Source: a virus. From it: a stretch of 64,000 nucleotides of DNA. A model generated the notes under the pieces. That model searched no databases, was not told the DNA's origin, and was given only the letters and a program-made list of their open reading frames with translations. The stretch lies in the IMG/VR virus record IMGVR_UViG_3300028364_000018, positions 58,488 to 122,487 of that record, one strand, 5' to 3'. Within the stretch, counting starts at the first letter, position 1. Each line of letters begins with the position of its first letter. This document shows, one piece after another, positions 3,276-62,610 of this stretch. Made by a program: the position numbers and the translations under genes.

Positions 3276-3491
3276 TGGCCACACGATTATTTGTGTGACG
3301 TGCTTCCTAAACTTTGCACATCCAAGCAAGCGGCTGAGGTCTTCAAAGAGTTTATGATTTTGGATGGGGTACCAAAACGCATCTGGTACCCAAAATACAA
3401 AGGTGTGCAGCATTTCGGGCCTCAGTTTGGCCGGGCTAAAGATCTGGAGGCGTTGGGCAGCCAGCCGGAGCCTGTTGTGATGTTGGGGTAA
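3276..3491 (+). pseudogene. 5'-truncated DUF1353 remnant
   Basis: Frame reads PHDYLCDVLPKLCTSKQAAEVFKEFM..VQHFGPQF, aligning to the C-terminal half of 9405..9863 (LHDFL..CDTHLASAIFMEAL..EHYGPQF). In-frame stop at 3273 and no in-frame ATG before the HD motif. Confidence 0.65.
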
Positions 3492-3704
3492 ATTTTTTTG
3501 ACCGCTAAATTTCGCTAATGAGATCGGTAAGAAATTGAGTCTTGTTCATCCCGCTTTTTTTAATGGCGATCATTAGCTTTTGATTTAAATCTTCGGGGAG
3601 CGTGAAAGAATGCCGATTGTGGTTGGGACCATCTGGCTAGATGGGGCGGTTGTTGGAGAGGACCAGAACATACAGGTGGAGTTGGTGGTCATCCCATAAA
3701 GGCC

Positions 3705-3733
3705 TTGACAAACTGCTGACTCTAAGGCAATCT
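3705..3733 (+). promoter_or_regulatory. Sigma70-like promoter
   Basis: TTGACA-N17-CAATCT, 6 nt before ATG 3740. Confidence 0.55.
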
Positions 3734-3739
3734 GCGTAG

Positions 3740-3979
3740 ATGCCTATCCAACTCCGAACAACCGATAATAAGGTCCAGATTCTCACCCCGCAAACGCGGT
3801 TTGTGGAGGTTGTGGATGACCAACAGCATTTGGTATCCCTGGTCTGGCAGGACCAGGAGGGTCTAACTTGCGTGGCTAGTACCCCGGATAAGATGATCGA
3901 CCGTTATTGCCGGATGTTCGGACTGACGCCCTGCGAATCGCGAACACTACCCAACCACATGTTTCAGGACTCCCAATGA
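3740..3979 (+). CDS. Hypothetical protein
   Basis: 79-aa ORF directly after a promoter and coupled to the next gene. Confidence 0.6.
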   Translation: MPIQLRTTDNKVQILTPQTRFVEVVDDQQHLVSLVWQDQEGLTCVASTPDKMIDRYCRMFGLTPCESRTLPNHMFQDSQ

Positions 3980-11413: not shown

Positions 11414-13657
11414 GTGAAAGCCGTACAACTACTCATTGAATCCCGGCTTCCTCCAGAACTGCGCGATTATAACCGGGAGTACACAGCTAAGTCCATAGGG
11501 AATCTCCTATCGGACTTGGCAGTTTCGTACCCAGATAAGTACGACGAGGTGAGCAGGCTTATCGGTGACACTGGGCGTAACAGTAGTTACTGGCAGGGTG
11601 ACACCATCAAACTGTCTGACCTGAAGCCCGTATTCGACAAAGAACCGTTGTTGGAGCAGATGAAGGCGGAGATCGCGGGCTTACCACGGGATGACCCGAA
11701 GTTCGAGGACCAGCGCCAGGCTGTATGGATCCGGTACAACGAGGAGATGCAGAGGCTCACCAACGAGGCAGGAGCCACGTCCGATAACAGCATCGCACGA
11801 GCTGTATTGAGCGGTGCGCGTGGTAAACCCGACCAGATGAAGATGATGCTGACCGCCCCCGGACTCTACTCCAACAGTAAGGGTGTAGTTCCGTTATTCA
11901 TCAGTCATAGCTTTGGAGAGGGCCTGCGCCCCGCTGAATACCTGGCTAGTACCTACGGAGCACGTGATAGTATTGTGAAGATCAAGACCGCTACGGCGAA
12001 AGGTGGCGATTTTGGGAAGCAAATTGCGCAAACTGCTGCTACTACGATAGTTACGACGAAAGACTGCGGTACAGACAACGGGTTGGACTTGGATTTGGCA
12101 GACCCCTCGCTGAGAGGCCGGGTGCTGGCTAAGGCCGTGGGTGGGCTGGGAGTCGGAACTGTTTTAGATCGAAGTGCCTTACAACAGTTGGAGAAGGAGA
12201 AGGTCACGACCGTTATAGCGAGGTCGGCCATGACCTGTAATGCCGGTACTGGTGTGTGCCAGCAGTGCATCGGTAAGTTTCACGATCAACGCTTTCCTAA
12301 GATAGGGGAGGCAGTGGGGGTAACAGCGGCTAACGCATTAAGCGAGCCCGTCACTCAAGGCAGCCTTGGATGTCTAACGGACGATACACTGGTTCGTATG
12401 ACAGACTTCACTACCAAAAGAATCGACCAGATCAAGGTCGGGGACATGGTGTTAGGCTCGGATGTAAAGGCCAGGACCTTCCCGGTCAAGGTCCTACATG
12501 TGTGGGATAAAGGACTCCAACCGGTCAAGCGTCGGGTTTTCACCCAGCCGGAGCTATCAGTGGACTGTACTGACGACCATATCATGCTCTTGTCGGATGC
12601 ACAGGGTGTTCTCAGCAAACAACCAGCTGGAACCCCGGGAGAGGTGTTGGCCCCCATAGTCGGGCTTCCACACCCTCTACCCAGAACAGCTGTGGAAGAC
12701 CTAGGCCTTCTTCACTGCATGGACATCAGCGTCGATCACCCGGATGAGCTGTTTGTCCTAGCCAACGGTTTGATAGTTAAGAACAGCAAACATTCGGGAG
12801 GCCAGACAACAGGTAAAAAAGAGTATTCGGGCTTCAACGTCATCAACCAACTTGTGCAATCCCCAGAGGAGTTCCCAGACAGAGCCCTAGTCTCGGAAGA
12901 GAGCGGTACAGTCAGCTCCGTAGAAGAAGCACCCCAAGGTGGGTTCATCGTGACTGTTGGAGAATCCCAGCATTACGTACCCCAGGGGTATCCGGTGATG
13001 GTTAAGTCCGGCGACCGGGTTGAGGCGGGTGATCAGCTCAGCGAGGGCCTGATAGACGCGGGTGACATCGTACGCCTTCGTGGTCTAGGTAGCGGACGGC
13101 GTTACTTTGCGGATCGCCTACACCGTGTACTGGAAGACAGTGGATTCGGAGGGGATAAACGTAATGTGGAGATCGTAAGTCGGTCTGTCATTGATCATGC
13201 TCGTGTCGAGGATGACCAGAACCTACCCGGGACACTCCCTGACGATCAGATCAGCTACAACCGCCTTAGCCAGACCTACACCCCACCAGCGTCCTCCAAA
13301 CGTCTTCCAACAGCAGATACAGTCGGCCAATACCTACAGAGCCCGGCTCTGCACTACTCGATTGGAACCCGGCTAAGCCCCTCCCAAGTAAAACGCCTCC
13401 AAACATCGGGCTATACCCATCTTGAGGTATCTCCGGAAGAGCCGGGGTTCCGTACGGAGATGCAGAGACTTCGGACATCCACACAGACCAACCCCGACTG
13501 GTTGGCCCGGCAAGGCGCTTCGTACCTCAAGAGTAATTTACTGGAAGGGGCGGTCCGAGGACAGGACACCAATATACAATCTAACATTCATTTTGGACCG
13601 AGGCTTGCATTTGGTAAGGATTTCGGTAAGAATACGGCAACTACAGGAGAATTTTAA
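11414..13657 (+). CDS. rpoC: Phage RNA polymerase beta-prime subunit, C-terminal half, intein-containing
   Basis: SGARG, SFGEGL.PAEY..STYGAR (bridge helix), KDCGT and CNAGTGVCQQC (Zn site), GEAVGV.AA..LSEPVTQ, SKHSGG (trigger loop), KRNVEIV. No NADFDGD motif, so this is one piece of a split subunit. Confidence 0.92.
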   Translation: MKAVQLLIESRLPPELRDYNREYTAKSIGNLLSDLAVSYPDKYDEVSRLIGDTGRNSSYWQGDTIKLSDLKPVFDKEPLLEQMKAEIAGLPRDDPKFEDQRQAVWIRYNEEMQRLTNEAGATSDNSIARAVLSGARGKPDQMKMMLTAPGLYSNSKGVVPLFISHSFGEGLRPAEYLASTYGARDSIVKIKTATAKGGDFGKQIAQTAATTIVTTKDCGTDNGLDLDLADPSLRGRVLAKAVGGLGVGTVLDRSALQQLEKEKVTTVIARSAMTCNAGTGVCQQCIGKFHDQRFPKIGEAVGVTAANALSEPVTQGSLGCLTDDTLVRMTDFTTKRIDQIKVGDMVLGSDVKARTFPVKVLHVWDKGLQPVKRRVFTQPELSVDCTDDHIMLLSDAQGVLSKQPAGTPGEVLAPIVGLPHPLPRTAVEDLGLLHCMDISVDHPDELFVLANGLIVKNSKHSGGQTTGKKEYSGFNVINQLVQSPEEFPDRALVSEESGTVSSVEEAPQGGFIVTVGESQHYVPQGYPVMVKSGDRVEAGDQLSEGLIDAGDIVRLRGLGSGRRYFADRLHRVLEDSGFGGDKRNVEIVSRSVIDHARVEDDQNLPGTLPDDQISYNRLSQTYTPPASSKRLPTADTVGQYLQSPALHYSIGTRLSPSQVKRLQTSGYTHLEVSPEEPGFRTEMQRLRTSTQTNPDWLARQGASYLKSNLLEGAVRGQDTNIQSNIHFGPRLAFGKDFGKNTATTGEF
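12371..12784 (+). mobile_element. Mini-intein (138 aa, no homing endonuclease)
   Basis: Starts CLTDDTLV..KRIDQIKVGDMV, block B CTDDH, ends MDISVDHPDELFVLANGLIVKN followed by Ser +1. Confidence 0.9.
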
Positions 13658-55268: not shown

Positions 55269-57728
55269 TCAGCGCGTTTTTGACTTCAGAGCAGGCTCCT
55301 CAGGCTCCTCCCAAATACCGGGCTTAACGCCGGCCCCGTAGTAATTACAGATAAAGCGTTGGCCCTCCACTCCAGTTGTGATCATCTGCCCCTCCAGCAG
55401 AACGTCCCCGGCCAAATCCGTCAGTTCCATCACAAGGTCCTGAGTCCGGATCCCCACCTTCTTAGGTAGCTTCCGAAGATCGATAACCATCCGACCCCTG
55501 CGTATGTCCCAGAGAAAGAACCTTTCCACATCCTCAGCCTTCACCTGAGACAACACGCTTTCCAGCACCTCGTAAGGGCGTTGGCTCGCAGGCCAGTTAC
55601 TGAGGTCCGAGCACTTACGGACGATCTGTTGTCCCTCTTCGATCAGAGACGACTCGTAGCAGGCCCGCCGCGCAGGCTCCTGCACCCAACTCTCGCCCCG
55701 GGTCAAGGCCGGTACTGCCATACGCAGGAGGGCGTTAAGAGTCTGGGCCGCACGATCCAGCGTCTCGTATTTACCCCTGGCAAAACTCAGACCCTTATCA
55801 GTCAAAGCTACGATGGGGTTAGCCAAGTCCTTGAGCTGAGCATCCTTCATGCCCTTGGTATAGACCGGATAACCACGCACACCGCTGGTTTGTGTGTTCC
55901 TGGCGTTCTGTCCCCAACTTATGGGTTGAACCTGCCCTAACCCTCTAAACACCCGTTCGATAACACGAGTGTTCCAGCTGGTATGGAGCACACGGATAGG
56001 CTCCACAGCCCAGCTCTGATGCCAGCGCCCGACCAAGCCCAGGATCATCGCCACCAAGTCCGCCAAGTCCGGCGTTAGGTCCTGGTGAAGGTGCGGCTCC
56101 ACCAACCCAGACTGAAAGCACTGCAACTCCCGGGTATCCGGATGCCACGGTACTACCCCGTTATCCAACACACCCTCACCTACATAGAAGTCTGGGTGCC
56201 AGAAGTGATTGCGCAATCCGCTGAATCCCATGAAAGCCAGTCCGTACTGCTGTTCCAGATCCGCCAGGTTCTTCCTTGTCCAGTGTAGGAGTGGTCCGGC
56301 CTTGTCAGGCGCGAGCACCCTTGCTGGGCGAACGTCTGGTTTGTTCTCTGTGTTTAGTAGATGATCCGCCAGCTTCTTACCGGTCTCCAGCATATGCTCG
56401 GGAATGAGCAGCTGGCGCTCGCCCGCGCCCACATCGATCTTGAGGCGGATGTAGCTACCGACAGATTCCGGAAAGGACACACGAGATTCGGGTGTCCAGG
56501 TGAAGTTGGTCAGCGCCATGTTCTCCCCTGTGTCGCGGGCTCGACTGACGTAGCCGGAGGATGTCACGAGCACCTCAGACTTAGTGGTGCTAAAAAGACT
56601 ACCCTGCCCAAAACGCTGGTTAAGAACCTGTAGGGATTTGTATCTACCGAGGTTCTGCAGCATACTCTCCACCCGCCCTTTGAACTGTGGGTCTGGGCCT
56701 TGAGCCTCCAGGAGTTGTACGGCAGATACCGGAAGTTGATCGTTCACGGTCAGAGCCCGCAGTTCCTCCAGTACCACATCCAGCGTATTCTTATCCACCG
56801 TTAGCTGTGGGGAGAACAACTGATGGATGGTACGCATCTGCGGCCAGCCTCCGTTTTGAGACAGTACTCGCCCTATATTGGTCACGGCCTGCAGATCGTC
56901 TGTAAGTATCAGAGTCTGACGTCCTTCTCTGTAGGGAGTGGAGGAGCTGATGTCGGTCAAGGCCGCTGTACAGAACTGTCGCCCCTGCAGACCTGTGCAG
57001 GTCTTAGCCGCCTCCTCCGCGCCGGCAAACACCAACCAGGGCCTATCCGTATGCGCTCTCCATAGTCCGGTGTAGGATATGCTGTTTGTCGCGATACTTA
57101 TGAGCCGGGGGTTCGATCCGTCCGCCCTACGGACTACCAGCTTATCCCATGCGTGCGGGAGGTAAAAATAGGGAGTGACGATCCCCGCCTGTCCGGCTGG
57201 CCACTGCAGATCATGTCCCAGGACCTTCAGGGCCGACACCAACTCCTGCATACGCCGTGGTCCCAAGGGTATGAGCGTATGTCTATCTATTTTAAGGTCT
57301 ATCTCTTGGTTTTGGACGTAGCGCAGGGCCTTGGTGGTCGCCAGGCAGACTGTATGGGGATCGACGTCGGTCATGATGTCGAATACCTGTCGATAAGCTA
57401 TGTAGGTCTCCGCCAGTTGCTCGATCTCCCGGTACTCCGGTGCTTCTGTTAGGTGTAACACCCTCTGGCGTAGATACTGCAGTACCTCTGTGAAAGTCTG
57501 AATGGTGCTGACACCCCTAGTGCGCTTGTGCCACACGAGTAGCTCGACTGCACTCCCCGCATGAAAAGAGGAATGAGGAGAGTAGCATACGACGGAGGAT
57601 GGGCCGACACGCATCAAACCCGTGCCACCAAGCTCCACCTTATTGTCCACCACCGGGTATGATGGGAGGTCGATTAAGGCAGATGCAGGTGCTAACTCAA
57701 TATAGGGTCTGATACTTTCAAAGGTCAT
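55269..57728 (-). CDS. Large hypothetical protein, possibly a degenerate primase/DUF927-like protein
   Basis: 819-aa ORF with its own promoter; only weak resemblance to CHC2/TOPRIM/DUF927 segments. Confidence 0.4.
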   Translation of the reverse strand: MTFESIRPYIELAPASALIDLPSYPVVDNKVELGGTGLMRVGPSSVVCYSPHSSFHAGSAVELLVWHKRTRGVSTIQTFTEVLQYLRQRVLHLTEAPEYREIEQLAETYIAYRQVFDIMTDVDPHTVCLATTKALRYVQNQEIDLKIDRHTLIPLGPRRMQELVSALKVLGHDLQWPAGQAGIVTPYFYLPHAWDKLVVRRADGSNPRLISIATNSISYTGLWRAHTDRPWLVFAGAEEAAKTCTGLQGRQFCTAALTDISSSTPYREGRQTLILTDDLQAVTNIGRVLSQNGGWPQMRTIHQLFSPQLTVDKNTLDVVLEELRALTVNDQLPVSAVQLLEAQGPDPQFKGRVESMLQNLGRYKSLQVLNQRFGQGSLFSTTKSEVLVTSSGYVSRARDTGENMALTNFTWTPESRVSFPESVGSYIRLKIDVGAGERQLLIPEHMLETGKKLADHLLNTENKPDVRPARVLAPDKAGPLLHWTRKNLADLEQQYGLAFMGFSGLRNHFWHPDFYVGEGVLDNGVVPWHPDTRELQCFQSGLVEPHLHQDLTPDLADLVAMILGLVGRWHQSWAVEPIRVLHTSWNTRVIERVFRGLGQVQPISWGQNARNTQTSGVRGYPVYTKGMKDAQLKDLANPIVALTDKGLSFARGKYETLDRAAQTLNALLRMAVPALTRGESWVQEPARRACYESSLIEEGQQIVRKCSDLSNWPASQRPYEVLESVLSQVKAEDVERFFLWDIRRGRMVIDLRKLPKKVGIRTQDLVMELTDLAGDVLLEGQMITTGVEGQRFICNYYGAGVKPGIWEEPEEPALKSKTR

Positions 57729-57736
57729 TTGGTAGG

Positions 57737-57765
57737 ATCGTAGCAGAAAGACGTGGTTTACGCAA
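57737..57765 (-). promoter_or_regulatory. Sigma70-like promoter
   Basis: Minus strand TTGCGT-N17-TACGAT, 8 nt before ATG 57728. Confidence 0.6.
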
Positions 57766-57839
57766 GTTCGGCGTTGGTCCTAACTTAGGGTGTTTTTTAT
57801 GCAATAACAGAGGGTTCTGCGTTATATATACTTGAACCC

Positions 57840-58258
57840 CCTCAAAAGGATTCAAACAAGGGCGGACGCAACGCCTCTTAGACCCTTTCCACTAGAATGG
57901 TCTAAGCCTCAGAGGGATAAAGCCCCTGTACGGTATACATTGCGCGGACTCGACAGGTGGATGTCGGGGAGGCCACTCATTGAAGTGGTAGGTTGCTCAA
58001 AAGGCAACAAAGGTTCTGACGTTCACGTCGGGGACTCTTGGTGGGATACGTTGACCACCAGCTTTTGAATCGGCGGGGTTTCCCCGTCATCGCTCTCCAC
58101 CCAGGGAGCGTGCAGCGCACTAGCTACCTTTACTGGTAGCCTTCCCTGGACTTGTACGACCAGGGGTGAAATGGGTAGTACTATTCGGGAACCTCGGAAT
58201 TCCGGGCGTGCGTTCGCTGGTGGGTAGACCAGTGGACCACGCCCGGACACCCTTTTTT
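57840..58258 (+). ncRNA. Candidate structured ncRNA (unidentified)
   Basis: About 11 adjacent hairpins, ending in a 20-bp hairpin plus T6; no convincing ORF. Confidence 0.5.
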
Positions 58259-58298
58259 AACCGTAGAGCAGAGTAACCAACCAAACAAGGAAAGTAAG

Positions 58299-58496
58299 AT
58301 GAGTAAACGAAAAGTAAAGAAAGGCCCACTCCCCCACGAGGTAGACGCGGCTTTAAAGATGCTGGACCTAGTTGGTCCATTCGATGCTACGGATTTCGAG
58401 ATCCGTAAGCAAGCCCTTCTACGGAAGGGCGTACAGCTCCGCAATACGCGGGGGTGGAGTTGGACGGACTTTCAGCAGCAGGCCTCCGCCCGCTGA
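58299..58496 (+). CDS. Small basic hypothetical protein
   Basis: SD aagga; 65 aa. Confidence 0.55.
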   Translation: MSKRKVKKGPLPHEVDAALKMLDLVGPFDATDFEIRKQALLRKGVQLRNTRGWSWTDFQQQASAR

Positions 58497-58604
58497 AAAC
58501 CTATGCAGACAGGCCGGGGATATACCCAGCCTGTCTGCATGGGGGTACTACAGAAGTCGGGAATTCCCCACGCTTCTGTTTTAGCTACTAGCCCGATTTG
58601 AAGG

Positions 58605-58633
58605 TTGACAACCACGAACAAAACATGCAAGAT
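58605..58633 (+). promoter_or_regulatory. Sigma70-like promoter
   Basis: TTGACA-N17-CAAGAT, 9 nt before ATG 58643. Confidence 0.6.
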
Positions 58634-58642
58634 GCACACACT

Positions 58643-59716
58643 ATGAAGCTTCAAGACCAGATTCACGACCAGAACCCCACTCCCATTTTTTACTTAGAGG
58701 AGCAAGGGATACTCCCAGATTTCGCTAAGGACGCCAGTGCCCCTCCAGACGATCTGTCTGACGCGGGTTGGGCGATGCCCGACAAGCGGTTATTCCCCCT
58801 GCATGATAAGTCAGCGACTTACCGTAGTATCGCTTACTTCCACGGCAAAGGCCTATCCAACACCCACCCGGATGTCGCACAGCGTCTTAAACAGGCGGCA
58901 GAGTCCTATGACCTGGTAGAGCACCATGACGTGCTCCGAGACCTATTCCGGGCTCAAGTTAAACAAGCATCTGAGCCTGAAACGCTTTATGCTCTGGCTG
59001 TAAATATGGGGCAGTCCATGGGCGACCAACAGTTCTACCCTATGAATGATTCATTGGAGTTGGAGCTCAGCATGGACATGGTACGCAAAGATGCCTCTGA
59101 AGGACGCCTACCCCTGGAGCTCCAACGTGAGGCATCTCTTGCCCTGTGCAAGCGAGCTTCCGAACTTGGCTACGATCCGCAGGACATCCCGCTTGCTATC
59201 TCCAGCTTGGGCGTACCCCGTGTCCCCAACTACGATCATGCCGATTCGTGCGTCGGCCTCCGCAAACTAGCGGGTGTACCTACAGAAGCGCTGGACATGT
59301 ACCGGGAACTCGTGAAGGCCGCGCGCGCCGACGCAGAGAACATAGGGTCGATGCAGGAAGAGCAGGAGATGGTGGAGAAATACGCGGAGTTGATGTTAGA
59401 GCTCGACCGCAATTGCGGGATCCAGTCCTACGACAACAACGTGGTAGACCCCTACACGTCCTTCTTCTTTGGCACCCCTGTATCCGAGATCAAGACCGCC
59501 GCAGAACAAATGCTGTTCTTGGGTGATACCATGGTACCGATGTGCGCCCTGCAGGCCATCCCGGATCAGAAGCTGGATGTGCGGTTCAGTAAAGTAGCCT
59601 CTCAAGCCATTAAAAGTATGAAGGGTGGTAGCACCTACGACGCCAACCATGCAATTGGGTTGATGAACGAGGCGGATGTTCAGGAATTACTGGATCTGTC
59701 TATCCAATACGGCTAG
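58643..59716 (+). CDS. K-x-A-rich putative head protein
   Basis: 11 K-x-A sites; WAMPDKRLFPLHD motif. Confidence 0.55.
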   Translation: MKLQDQIHDQNPTPIFYLEEQGILPDFAKDASAPPDDLSDAGWAMPDKRLFPLHDKSATYRSIAYFHGKGLSNTHPDVAQRLKQAAESYDLVEHHDVLRDLFRAQVKQASEPETLYALAVNMGQSMGDQQFYPMNDSLELELSMDMVRKDASEGRLPLELQREASLALCKRASELGYDPQDIPLAISSLGVPRVPNYDHADSCVGLRKLAGVPTEALDMYRELVKAARADAENIGSMQEEQEMVEKYAELMLELDRNCGIQSYDNNVVDPYTSFFFGTPVSEIKTAAEQMLFLGDTMVPMCALQAIPDQKLDVRFSKVASQAIKSMKGGSTYDANHAIGLMNEADVQELLDLSIQYG

Positions 59717-60744: not shown

Positions 60745-62610
60745 CTAACCCATGTAAGGATCTGGAACGTGTTGGATCGGGCTGTCAAAGTGTGTGAGTT
60801 TATTCTGCAACTCGCGTTGCAGGCCCTGATCCGGTACAAGCTGCTCACCCAACATTATCTTACCCAGCACAAACGCGAAGTTTGTGGCATGCAACGTATC
60901 GTCAGGCTGTTCCCCGGACCTTAAGTATCGGAAGGTGGTTGAACCCGTCGCGCTGTTCTCACTCTGAGTACGCGTCATGTTGAGGAAGTAACTTAAAAGG
61001 GTCTTGGCCTCCTCCCACTCATAACAACGAATACGACTTTCCTTTACAGCCATAAACAACTTGGTAATCGCTTCATTGCGGTTCAAGCTGAGTTGGTTGA
61101 ACATGTGGTCACCATGTGGTTCGGCGACCGCCGCACTGTTGGGTCCCACGTAGTTAAAGATAATATGACGGCTGGCGCTCAGAGCGCTGGACTCCCGTAG
61201 CAGCATGTTGTAGGCGGCTCCCGCTCCAAAGTCACTGGCAAGGGCGTTCCCACCCAGTCGTCGGTGATCCGCAAGGATGTGGCCTACAATCTCCCGGTAG
61301 CCCATACCAGAGTAACGGCGCATGTGAATGATATCGAACTTCCCGTCGTTGGTGATACCCAACATAACATGGACAGTATAACTCTCCTTGGTATGGGTAG
61401 CCCGATTGTAGTCCGACCCACCCCAGTCACAACCGCTGACAATATACTTGTAGTAACCCTGTGTTTTAGCCTTCTTCTGTACTACATCCTGTGTCCCAAG
61501 AGTGCAGATGCTGATGAGTTCCTGCTCAGTTAACTCCCGGGCACCCTGCTCGGTTGGTATACCCATAACTTCCTGTAAGAACTTGGGGGTGTCGTACTCG
61601 TTGTAGGCATCCCATATCTCCTTCCACTTGACTGGGTCGATTGTGAAGTCCGGTATGATTATCTGAGGGACGTGCAGGCTAGTATTGTATTGCTCGAACC
61701 GACCCTGCATCTCGTGGACAAAGAAGCCAGAACGCGGGTCCAACCTGACCCCGGTCCAGGGGCAGCACAGCCCCTTCTGCTGAATGGCCGCCATTATCTG
61801 CTTCTGGTTCCCGCAGTCCAGGTAACGAGGAGCCCCGGTCTTCGTCCGACCCGGACACCGGATGTGCCAGGTGCCTCTTGAGCCGTTCTGATAGTTGGAT
61901 TCCAAGAATGTATCAATCGTGAGTGACGTGCCGGCTACCAGAAATACAGGCCAATTACTGGCCTTCATCACCTGCTGAACCTCCGGCCAGAGTCCCCCAT
62001 CAAAGCTCTGGGCCTCGTCGATGCTTAGCCAGTCTGTGGTCTTACCACGAGTCTGCTCGGCGGAGGTATAGGCATACACCAGATCGAACACAGCGCCCGA
62101 TGGGTACTCCTTATAATACTGGTTTTGCTTAAACTCTACGGAGCTGACCTTGATCCGACAGTAGCGTTCGAGCTCCATGACCTTTCGGGCAAAAGTCTCC
62201 AACTGCTTATTATGAGGTGCCAAGTACATCATCCTCTTACCCAGAACATGAGCCACCACCAGCTTGAGAGCTGCCAAGGTCGTGGACTTCGCGGCCTGGC
62301 GCCCCGCCCTAACCACGGTCTTGGAACCGGGTACGACTGATGTCATGCTGAACCCAAAAGGGCGATTGAGTAGTGAGAGGGGTTGGCGTTTGTTGTCCCT
62401 ATCTATTATATAAGCCGGAAACATATAAGGAAAAAGCATTCCCAGATTATAGTTGCAAGCTTCAAGTAGTTTGTTCATACTACGAGCAAGATTACGACCA
62501 CCCCTGGGATCTCGTTCCAACACAGACACGCAGGCACCAAGCCTTGACAGAAGTTGTTGGAACTCCCGGTCGGTCTTCATCCTTTGATATAAATCCCAAT
62601 TCTGGCGCAT
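60745..62610 (-). CDS. terL: Terminase large subunit (GpA-like)
   Basis: Walker A RAGRQAAKST, TRG, Walker B IDEAQ, Cys-rich insert, nuclease motifs SGCDW, SDFG and QPDDTLHA. Confidence 0.9.
   Translation of the reverse strand: MRQNWDLYQRMKTDREFQQLLSRLGACVSVLERDPRGGRNLARSMNKLLEACNYNLGMLFPYMFPAYIIDRDNKRQPLSLLNRPFGFSMTSVVPGSKTVVRAGRQAAKSTTLAALKLVVAHVLGKRMMYLAPHNKQLETFARKVMELERYCRIKVSSVEFKQNQYYKEYPSGAVFDLVYAYTSAEQTRGKTTDWLSIDEAQSFDGGLWPEVQQVMKASNWPVFLVAGTSLTIDTFLESNYQNGSRGTWHIRCPGRTKTGAPRYLDCGNQKQIMAAIQQKGLCCPWTGVRLDPRSGFFVHEMQGRFEQYNTSLHVPQIIIPDFTIDPVKWKEIWDAYNEYDTPKFLQEVMGIPTEQGARELTEQELISICTLGTQDVVQKKAKTQGYYKYIVSGCDWGGSDYNRATHTKESYTVHVMLGITNDGKFDIIHMRRYSGMGYREIVGHILADHRRLGGNALASDFGAGAAYNMLLRESSALSASRHIIFNYVGPNSAAVAEPHGDHMFNQLSLNRNEAITKLFMAVKESRIRCYEWEEAKTLLSYFLNMTRTQSENSATGSTTFRYLRSGEQPDDTLHATNFAFVLGKIMLGEQLVPDQGLQRELQNKLTHFDSPIQHVPDPYMG

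Follow-up and report, generated by a model that had tools for sequence, protein, structure and literature searches.

A candidate structured non-coding RNA of about 420 nt in a moron-like insertion of an uncultivated lake phage

A stretch of about 420 nt in the genome of an uncultivated lake phage is best read as a stand-alone or processed non-coding RNA, with read-through to a gene for a 65-aa protein, in a self-contained moron. The probability of this reading was put at about 45%. An earlier note on the same DNA had pointed to the stretch as a candidate novel phage non-coding RNA or an origin. The RNA reading is plausible, given the absence of Rfam, tRNA or tmRNA matches and of coding signal, together with a recurring promoter and a strand-biased structure. 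It had to be amended in one respect: the element is the 5' part of an inserted unit that also holds the 65-aa gene, and is not simply a stand-alone intergenic gene. The origin was not supported.

The window, that is, the whole stretch of 64,000 nt that was analysed, corresponds to bases 58,488-122,487 of a linear IMG/VR record of 122,487 bases, which is 63% complete by estimate. From record length and completeness, the phage genome is expected to be about 200 kb. The large terminase, encoded 2.5 kb from the element, shows only 22% identity to the nearest cultured-phage terminase, while its relatives number hundreds at 40-64% identity on contigs of uncultivated origin, the longest of about 220 kb, with P0003 among the closer ones at 64%. 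The other half of the record contains tRNA-Met, tRNA-Pro, tRNA-Thr and a tmRNA. The latter, at genome 20110-20506 (L004:1110-1506), matched RF00023 with 109.9 bits and was not called by ARAGORN. The element lies in a gap (57729-58298) between an 819-aa gene, whose protein has a 99% copy (P0001) as its sole match, and the 65-aa ORF. With 570 nt versus 465 nt at 3276-3740, this was the longest gene-free gap, as had been claimed. The features are collected in Table 1.

Table 1. Features of the element, its surroundings and the related unit RNA2 (window positions unless marked as genome).
Feature	Position	Strand	Remarks
819-aa orphan gene	55269-57728	-	Left neighbour of the gap
Putative leaderless-type sigma70-like promoter of the 819-aa gene	57737-57765	-	TTGCGT (rc 57760-57765), 17-nt spacer, TACGAT (rc 57737-57742), 8 nt to ATG at 57728; hexamers and spacing read by eye; left edge of the insertion
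Putative class-2 promoter/operator, TGCAATAAC-N12-GTTATATATACTTGA	57800-57835	+	Five copies in the record; scanner call
Predicted structured non-coding RNA, about 420 nt	57838-58258	+	From fold z, genome rank, no coding signal, no Rfam or ARAGORN match
Predicted 5' multibranch domain	57849-58071	+	Closed by a predicted 8-bp helix, GAUUCAAA (57849-57856) / UUUGAAUC (58064-58071)
Predicted three-way junction	57946-58036	+	Stem of 19 bp, six of the pairs G-U; carries the hairpins GCCACU/AGUGGU and GUUGCU/GGCAAC
Predicted tandem array of six short hairpins	58038-58168	+	Stems of 4-7 bp; pair probabilities 0.82-1.0
Predicted 3' hairpin	58201-58258	+	10+10 bp with one bulge (58201-58247), then CACCC, then U6 (58253-58258)
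RBS and 65-aa basic protein gene	58287-58496	+	RBS AAGGAAAG (58287-58294); gene 58299-58496; coding score 0.303
Long hairpin and canonical terminator	58500-58583	+	Hairpin 58500-58543; ACAGAAG (58550-58556)/CUUCUGU (58573-58579), then UUUU; -53.8 kcal/mol, z -7.6; right end of the unit
Putative own promoter of the 372-aa gene	58606-58645	+	TTGACA (58606-58611), 17-nt spacer, CAAGAT (58629-58634), 8 nt to ATG at 58643; read by eye; right edge of the insertion
Large terminase	60745-62610	-	Matches phrog_675
RNA2, ORF-free stretch of about 330 nt	genome C1:19552-19895 (L003:19552-19895)	+	Headed by a motif copy

The proposal of a hairpin-dense element implied a folding energy better than that of shuffled controls, and this was found. 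Positions 57840-58258 gave -181.9 kcal/mol on the + strand, with a z of -6.25 and 0 of 100 shuffles as good, and -161.9 kcal/mol with a z of -4.29 on the - strand. When the 3' hairpin was left out (57838-58195), z was still -3.66 on the + strand and -2.04 on the - strand. The window has one other large gap that is poor in genes, 3276-3740, which served as a control and showed a z of -0.21 on its + strand. In a scan of the genome with 611 windows of 400 nt, where the minimum free energy (MFE) was regressed on G+C, the element ranked in the top three on the + strand (z -3.4), with a z of -1.0 on the - strand. Windows starting at genome positions 12001, 13201, 36001 and 47601 were as far below the G+C expectation (z -2.9 to -3.7), and those at 12001 and 47601 had low folding energy on both strands.

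The significance of the fold is uneven. Two parts carry most of it, the three-way junction with a z of -5.1 and the 3' hairpin with a z of -6.8, while the 5' hairpins and the tandem hairpin array, each with a z of about -1.9 to -2.0 alone, are marginal; positions 58072-58195 folded alone reached a z of only about -2. About half of the hairpins are individually no better, or only marginally better, than shuffles. The + strand is more stable than the - strand by 17-20 kcal/mol, nearly all of it from the junction helix with its six G-U pairs, and the strand bias rests mainly on this single predicted helix. The earlier claim that G-U pairs favour the + strand was therefore right for the junction helix, but not for the fold as a whole, as the total G-U pairs in the MFE fold of each strand are alike (17 vs 16). 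By these modelled energies, the structure of the element is well above chance and strand-biased.

All the stems that had been listed were located in the sequence. Those retained by both the MFE and the partition function, at pair probabilities of 0.82-1.0, are CUUAGACC/GGUCUAAG (57877-57906), GCCACU/AGUGGU, GUUGCU/GGCAAC, UGGUGG/CCACCA, GGCGGGG/CCCCGUC, GCUCUC/GGGAGC, GUGC/GCAC, GCUACC/GGUAGC, CCCUGG/CCAGGG and the 10+10-bp hairpin at 58201-58247. The local stems CTCGACA/TGTCGGG and GACG/CGTC are present as well, but the fold favours a 19-bp long-range helix over them: the three-way junction was calculated at -39.5 kcal/mol on the + strand (-21.4 on the - strand), compared with -33.4 for the local-hairpin alternative. 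The 8-bp closing helix has a pair probability of 0.72 in the partition function and would enclose a multibranch domain of 223 nt; it stands as a prediction only, since chance alone would produce about one 8-bp match in a stretch of 420 nt.

The 3' hairpin reaches -40.8 kcal/mol. The run of six T after it is present, as had been noted, but 5 nt from the stem. A strong hairpin and a U6 tract, two marks of an intrinsic terminator, are thus in place with a spacer of 5 nt versus the 0-2 nt required, and because of this spacer the terminator scanner made no call. The hairpin could serve as a terminator of atypical form, as a site of processing or to stabilise the 3' end, and termination may be poor with the U-run 5 nt away. 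Hairpins of about 20 bp have the size of substrates for double-strand-specific RNases such as RNase III. No pairing that competes with this 20-bp hairpin was seen in MFE or ensemble folds, and a structure so stable with no visible competitor is unlikely to work as a conditional switch. No aptamer family of Rfam matched the element at E <= 10.

The TATA-rich, promoter-like site reported upstream of the element is real and recurs elsewhere in the genome. The 122-kb record contains a 33-nt motif in five near-identical copies, every one of them on the + strand, at genome positions 11537, 19552, 27884, 31254 and 116310 (the last being window 57823). The copies share AATAAC-N12-GTTATATATAYTTGA followed by NNCCCCTCAA. 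The scanner read the motif as sigma70-like, ATAACA-17-TATACT, and it includes the dyad ATAAC/GTTAT (ATAAC-N12-GTTAT). From its position, transcription would likely start near 57838-57841. Three of the copies head protein genes, with leaders of about 60-100 nt. This pattern of recurrence indicates that the motif is a dedicated promoter/operator class. The early promoter of the virion polymerase of phage AR9 has been described as AAATATATATTAT-(6N)-G (PMC5312081), which the alternating TATATAT core of the motif loosely recalls.

Another copy heads RNA2, for which a fold z of -3.5 and no Rfam match were obtained. The 3' ends of both stretches are alike, hairpin-ACA-U5 in RNA2 and hairpin-CACCC-U6 in the element. 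Downstream of RNA2 lie a separate sigma70-like promoter, tRNA-Met and the tmRNA, with no gene before that next promoter. The region of RNA2, tRNA and tmRNA is about 93% identical on the JGI contig Ga0222708_1010463 (L054:153-520). In the consensus fold of RNA2, 6 of 6 predicted pairs with substitutions keep their pairing (five with one side changed, one with both), counts that are only suggestive and not independent, because the structure was predicted from the same two sequences. Beyond the promoter, no homology between RNA2 and the element was detected.

Coding potential was evaluated by codon-usage log-odds, with the genome's 37 longest ORFs as the training set. Pieces of real genes of 78 codons scored 0.27 +/- 0.11 and off-frame pieces -0.47. 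Coding signal is absent from the gap, where the seven internal ORFs scored from -0.22 to 0.08, while the 65-aa ORF, at 0.303, is within the range of real genes.

Known RNA families were searched with the covariance models of Rfam 15 (4227 models, including GOLLD, ROOL, HEARO, OLE, raiA, 6S, SRP, phage pRNA, riboswitches and ribozymes). At gathering thresholds, there were 0 matches in the window, and the element matches no known family. At E <= 10, three noise matches of 7.5-12.5 bits appeared, all on the - strand. The earlier statement that hallmarks of tRNA, tmRNA or RNase P are lacking agrees with this result and with ARAGORN, which called none in the window. RNase P RNA was rejected, as its sole match, of 7.5 bits, fell on the - strand of the 3' hairpin and left out 333 positions of the model. 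The conserved blocks of its P4 pseudoknot, GAGGAAAGUCC and ACAGAAnCCGGCUUA, have loose look-alikes in GAGGGAUAAAGCCCC and GGGUGAAAUGGGUAG that, by eye, form no P4. A phi29 pRNA, a CsrB-like GGA sponge, a CRISPR-repeat mimic and a tRNA remnant were also considered and dropped for want of motif or model support. Complementarity of at least 15 nt between the element and the rest of the phage genome was not found, apart from one 19-nt match in the same sense.

Relatives of the RNA were not detected by blastn against 50,697 phage records, nor by nhmmer and blastn against 46 related loci. A covariance model (R1) was built from the single sequence of 57946-58168 with its MFE structure. It returned only the self-match in the 46 loci and the rest of the genome, and no match in the whole records of 35 relatives, of which 11 have a completeness of 90% or more; these negatives are soft, since a model made from one sequence is weak. 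Searches of IMG/VR with the 819-aa protein, the terminase and P0123, the homolog of the 65-aa protein, led to no close relatives, and the promoter pattern gave 0 matches there. The same pattern gave 4 matches in JGI metagenomes, one of which is the 93% relative, covering the RNA2-tRNA-tmRNA region only, and 1 unrelated match in GTDB genomes. By these searches, the element is an orphan with no family, and would join the moron-borne or stand-alone phage non-coding RNAs of unknown function.

The 65-aa protein has one homolog, P0123, with 70-75% identity, on ENA contigs of 715 nt. No family was found for it in Pfam or PHROG, and the ESM Atlas returned only unnamed clusters below 0.9. Its N-terminus is Lys-rich, and three helices were predicted by AlphaFold with a pLDDT of 60, which is too uncertain for a fold-based search. 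Residues 35-58 matched two long repeat proteins weakly and repeatedly. From the 3' hairpin to the RBS, no promoter that would belong to the gene itself was seen.

Across 46 related loci from IMG/VR, the gene order terminase, 205-aa, 372-aa and 819-aa is kept. Sixteen of these loci have both the 372-aa and 819-aa homologs, and in 13 of the sixteen the two are 17-195 nt apart (most commonly 92 nt), just space for two back-to-back promoters, compared with about 900 nt here. By tblastn in relatives, homology starts at residue 18-20 of the listed 372-aa ORF, in agreement with the ATG at 58643. Since the junction is short in 13 of 16 relatives and the flanking genes have their own promoters, the roughly 830 nt found here (promoter, RNA, small gene and terminators) are a moron-like insertion. 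As judged from sequence, a promoter and a terminator (58550-58583) both belong to the unit, which is absent from the junction in relatives. In L013:14618-17895, L014:12443-15720 and L028:13713-18376, the same junction holds other material of 3.3-4.7 kb. The comparison of loci points to the 372-aa/819-aa junction as an insertion hot spot. At the right end of the unit, the motif TTTTAGCTACTA (58580-58592) was observed also at genome C1:28355-28368, in both places after a terminator and before a sigma70-like promoter, and may be a conserved terminator-promoter joint.

According to the preferred reading, a moron of promoter, RNA of about 420 nt, 65-aa gene and terminator would have entered between two conserved genes of the virion region, whose leaderless promoters stand back to back. 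Transcription would begin at the recurring promoter/operator motif, which would also drive RNA2, and the transcript would fold into a multibranch 5' domain with the three-way junction, a row of short hairpins and the stable 20-bp 3' hairpin with its U-run. Most likely, the 3' hairpin would set the end of a discrete stable RNA, via inefficient termination or cleavage of the long duplex. This RNA could bind proteins in trans, as a scaffold or as a decoy, perhaps together with the small basic protein inserted alongside it, and read-through or processed transcripts would supply the mRNA for the latter.

The same unit could also be a single mRNA (57838-58583) in which a purely cis-acting 5' leader of 460 nt, with no function in trans, sets stability, processing or translation. 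This is somewhat unlikely, but it has to be weighed because the 65-aa gene, which is real and conserved, lies in the same unit with no visible promoter of its own and fits a plain 5' leader equally well. The U-run displaced from the stem of the 3' hairpin and a canonical terminator found only 3' of the 65-aa gene point the same way. In addition, CUUUCC in a hairpin loop (57885-57890) pairs with GGAAAG of the RBS, a 6-nt match near chance level. A discrete RNA is nevertheless favoured, since RNA2 shares the promoter motif and the kind of 3' end but is followed by no gene before the next promoter, and a leader of this length would far exceed the leaders of about 60-100 nt in the three other protein-coding units behind the motif. 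The 3' hairpin also argues for a discrete RNA, because it is extremely stable, no alternative pairing rivals its -40.8 kcal/mol, and its 20 bp or so are of the size cut by RNase III-type enzymes. The stretch could, on the other hand, have no sequence-specific function and be leftover or filler DNA of the insertion, e.g., a decayed gene, in which a few strong hairpins do no more than end transcripts. An orphan with no homolog in 46 loci, 35 whole relative genomes and the phage and Rfam libraries, half of whose hairpins beat shuffles only marginally, and which is located at an insertion hot spot (3.3-4.7 kb in L013, L014 and L028), would fit such a description. This is nonetheless quite improbable, as the body keeps its z of -3.66 even when the 3' hairpin is omitted, the three-way junction is strongly strand-specific besides its z of -5.1, the element sits precisely behind a strong conserved promoter, and it is among the top three of 611 genome windows.

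A function at the DNA level, as a replication origin, a site of packaging or clustered palindromes that bind proteins close to the terminase gene, is suggested by the many inverted repeats, the large terminase gene 2.5 kb away and the dyad in the promoter motif. It was considered highly improbable because iterons and an AT-rich block are lacking, folding is strand-biased and relatives have no counterpart. No repeated boxes were found either, only two short two-copy matches. The body has a G+C of 0.55, the same as its flanks and like that of the genome, and only the promoter zone is AT-richer. The best helix needs G-U pairs, the fold of the other strand being 17-20 kcal/mol weaker, and no such region is present at this site in relatives whose terminase neighbourhood is the same. 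The suggestion of an origin in the earlier note is consequently not supported.

Among known systems, the preferred reading of a moron-borne RNA can be compared with several. Morons are autonomous promoter-gene-terminator units between conserved genes, first described in lambdoid phages. The present unit resembles them in having its own promoter and terminator, in sitting between genes that are adjacent in relatives and in being absent from 13 of 16 loci. It differs in being mostly non-coding structured RNA, and in that the phage is an uncultivated one of about 200 kb and of virulent type, not a temperate lambdoid phage. With GOLLD (RF01998), ROOL (RF03087) and HEARO/omega RNA, the element shares a phage location, a length of several hundred nt, multiple hairpins and a genome with tRNA and tmRNA, but it matches none of their covariance models even at E = 10. 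Since no homologs are known, a conserved core of the element cannot be defined.

The N gene of lambda is preceded by a long structured leader that is processed by RNase III. The lambda pL-nutL-N leader and the early RNase III sites of T7 recall the present arrangement, on sequence grounds, in the early-type promoter, the extended, structured leader or the processing hairpin, which spans about two helical turns, and the gene for a small basic protein. Unlike in lambda, no boxA/boxB-like motif was identified in the element, and the N-terminus of the 65-aa protein is Lys-rich and not an arginine-rich motif. In phiKZ-like jumbo phages, intergenic sRNAs and early stand-alone RNA genes have reportedly been mapped by dRNA-seq or ONT-cappable-seq. 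They resemble the element as promoter-driven, unannotated non-coding transcripts of a large phage, the transcript being predicted from sequence in the present case, whereas the element is much longer and has no sequence relation to them.

To our knowledge, large structured phage RNAs are few, and almost none has a known function. The element is now one orphan sequence with good thermodynamic and contextual support. A bolder proposal, which we regard as unlikely, is that the phage makes at least two unrelated large structured RNAs (330-420 nt) from one promoter/operator class, possibly via its own virion-borne RNA polymerase. The element would then be a new phage RNA class that forms, with the 65-aa protein, a small mobile RNA-protein module, e.g., a decoy or scaffold against a host factor. 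If the main reading is true, an insertable unit made up of a promoter-driven RNA of 420 nt and a small basic protein would serve conveniently as a model, with two parts that are easily expressed. Together with RNA2 beside the tmRNA, it would suggest that a clade of lake phages of about 200 kb invests in early RNA-based functions.
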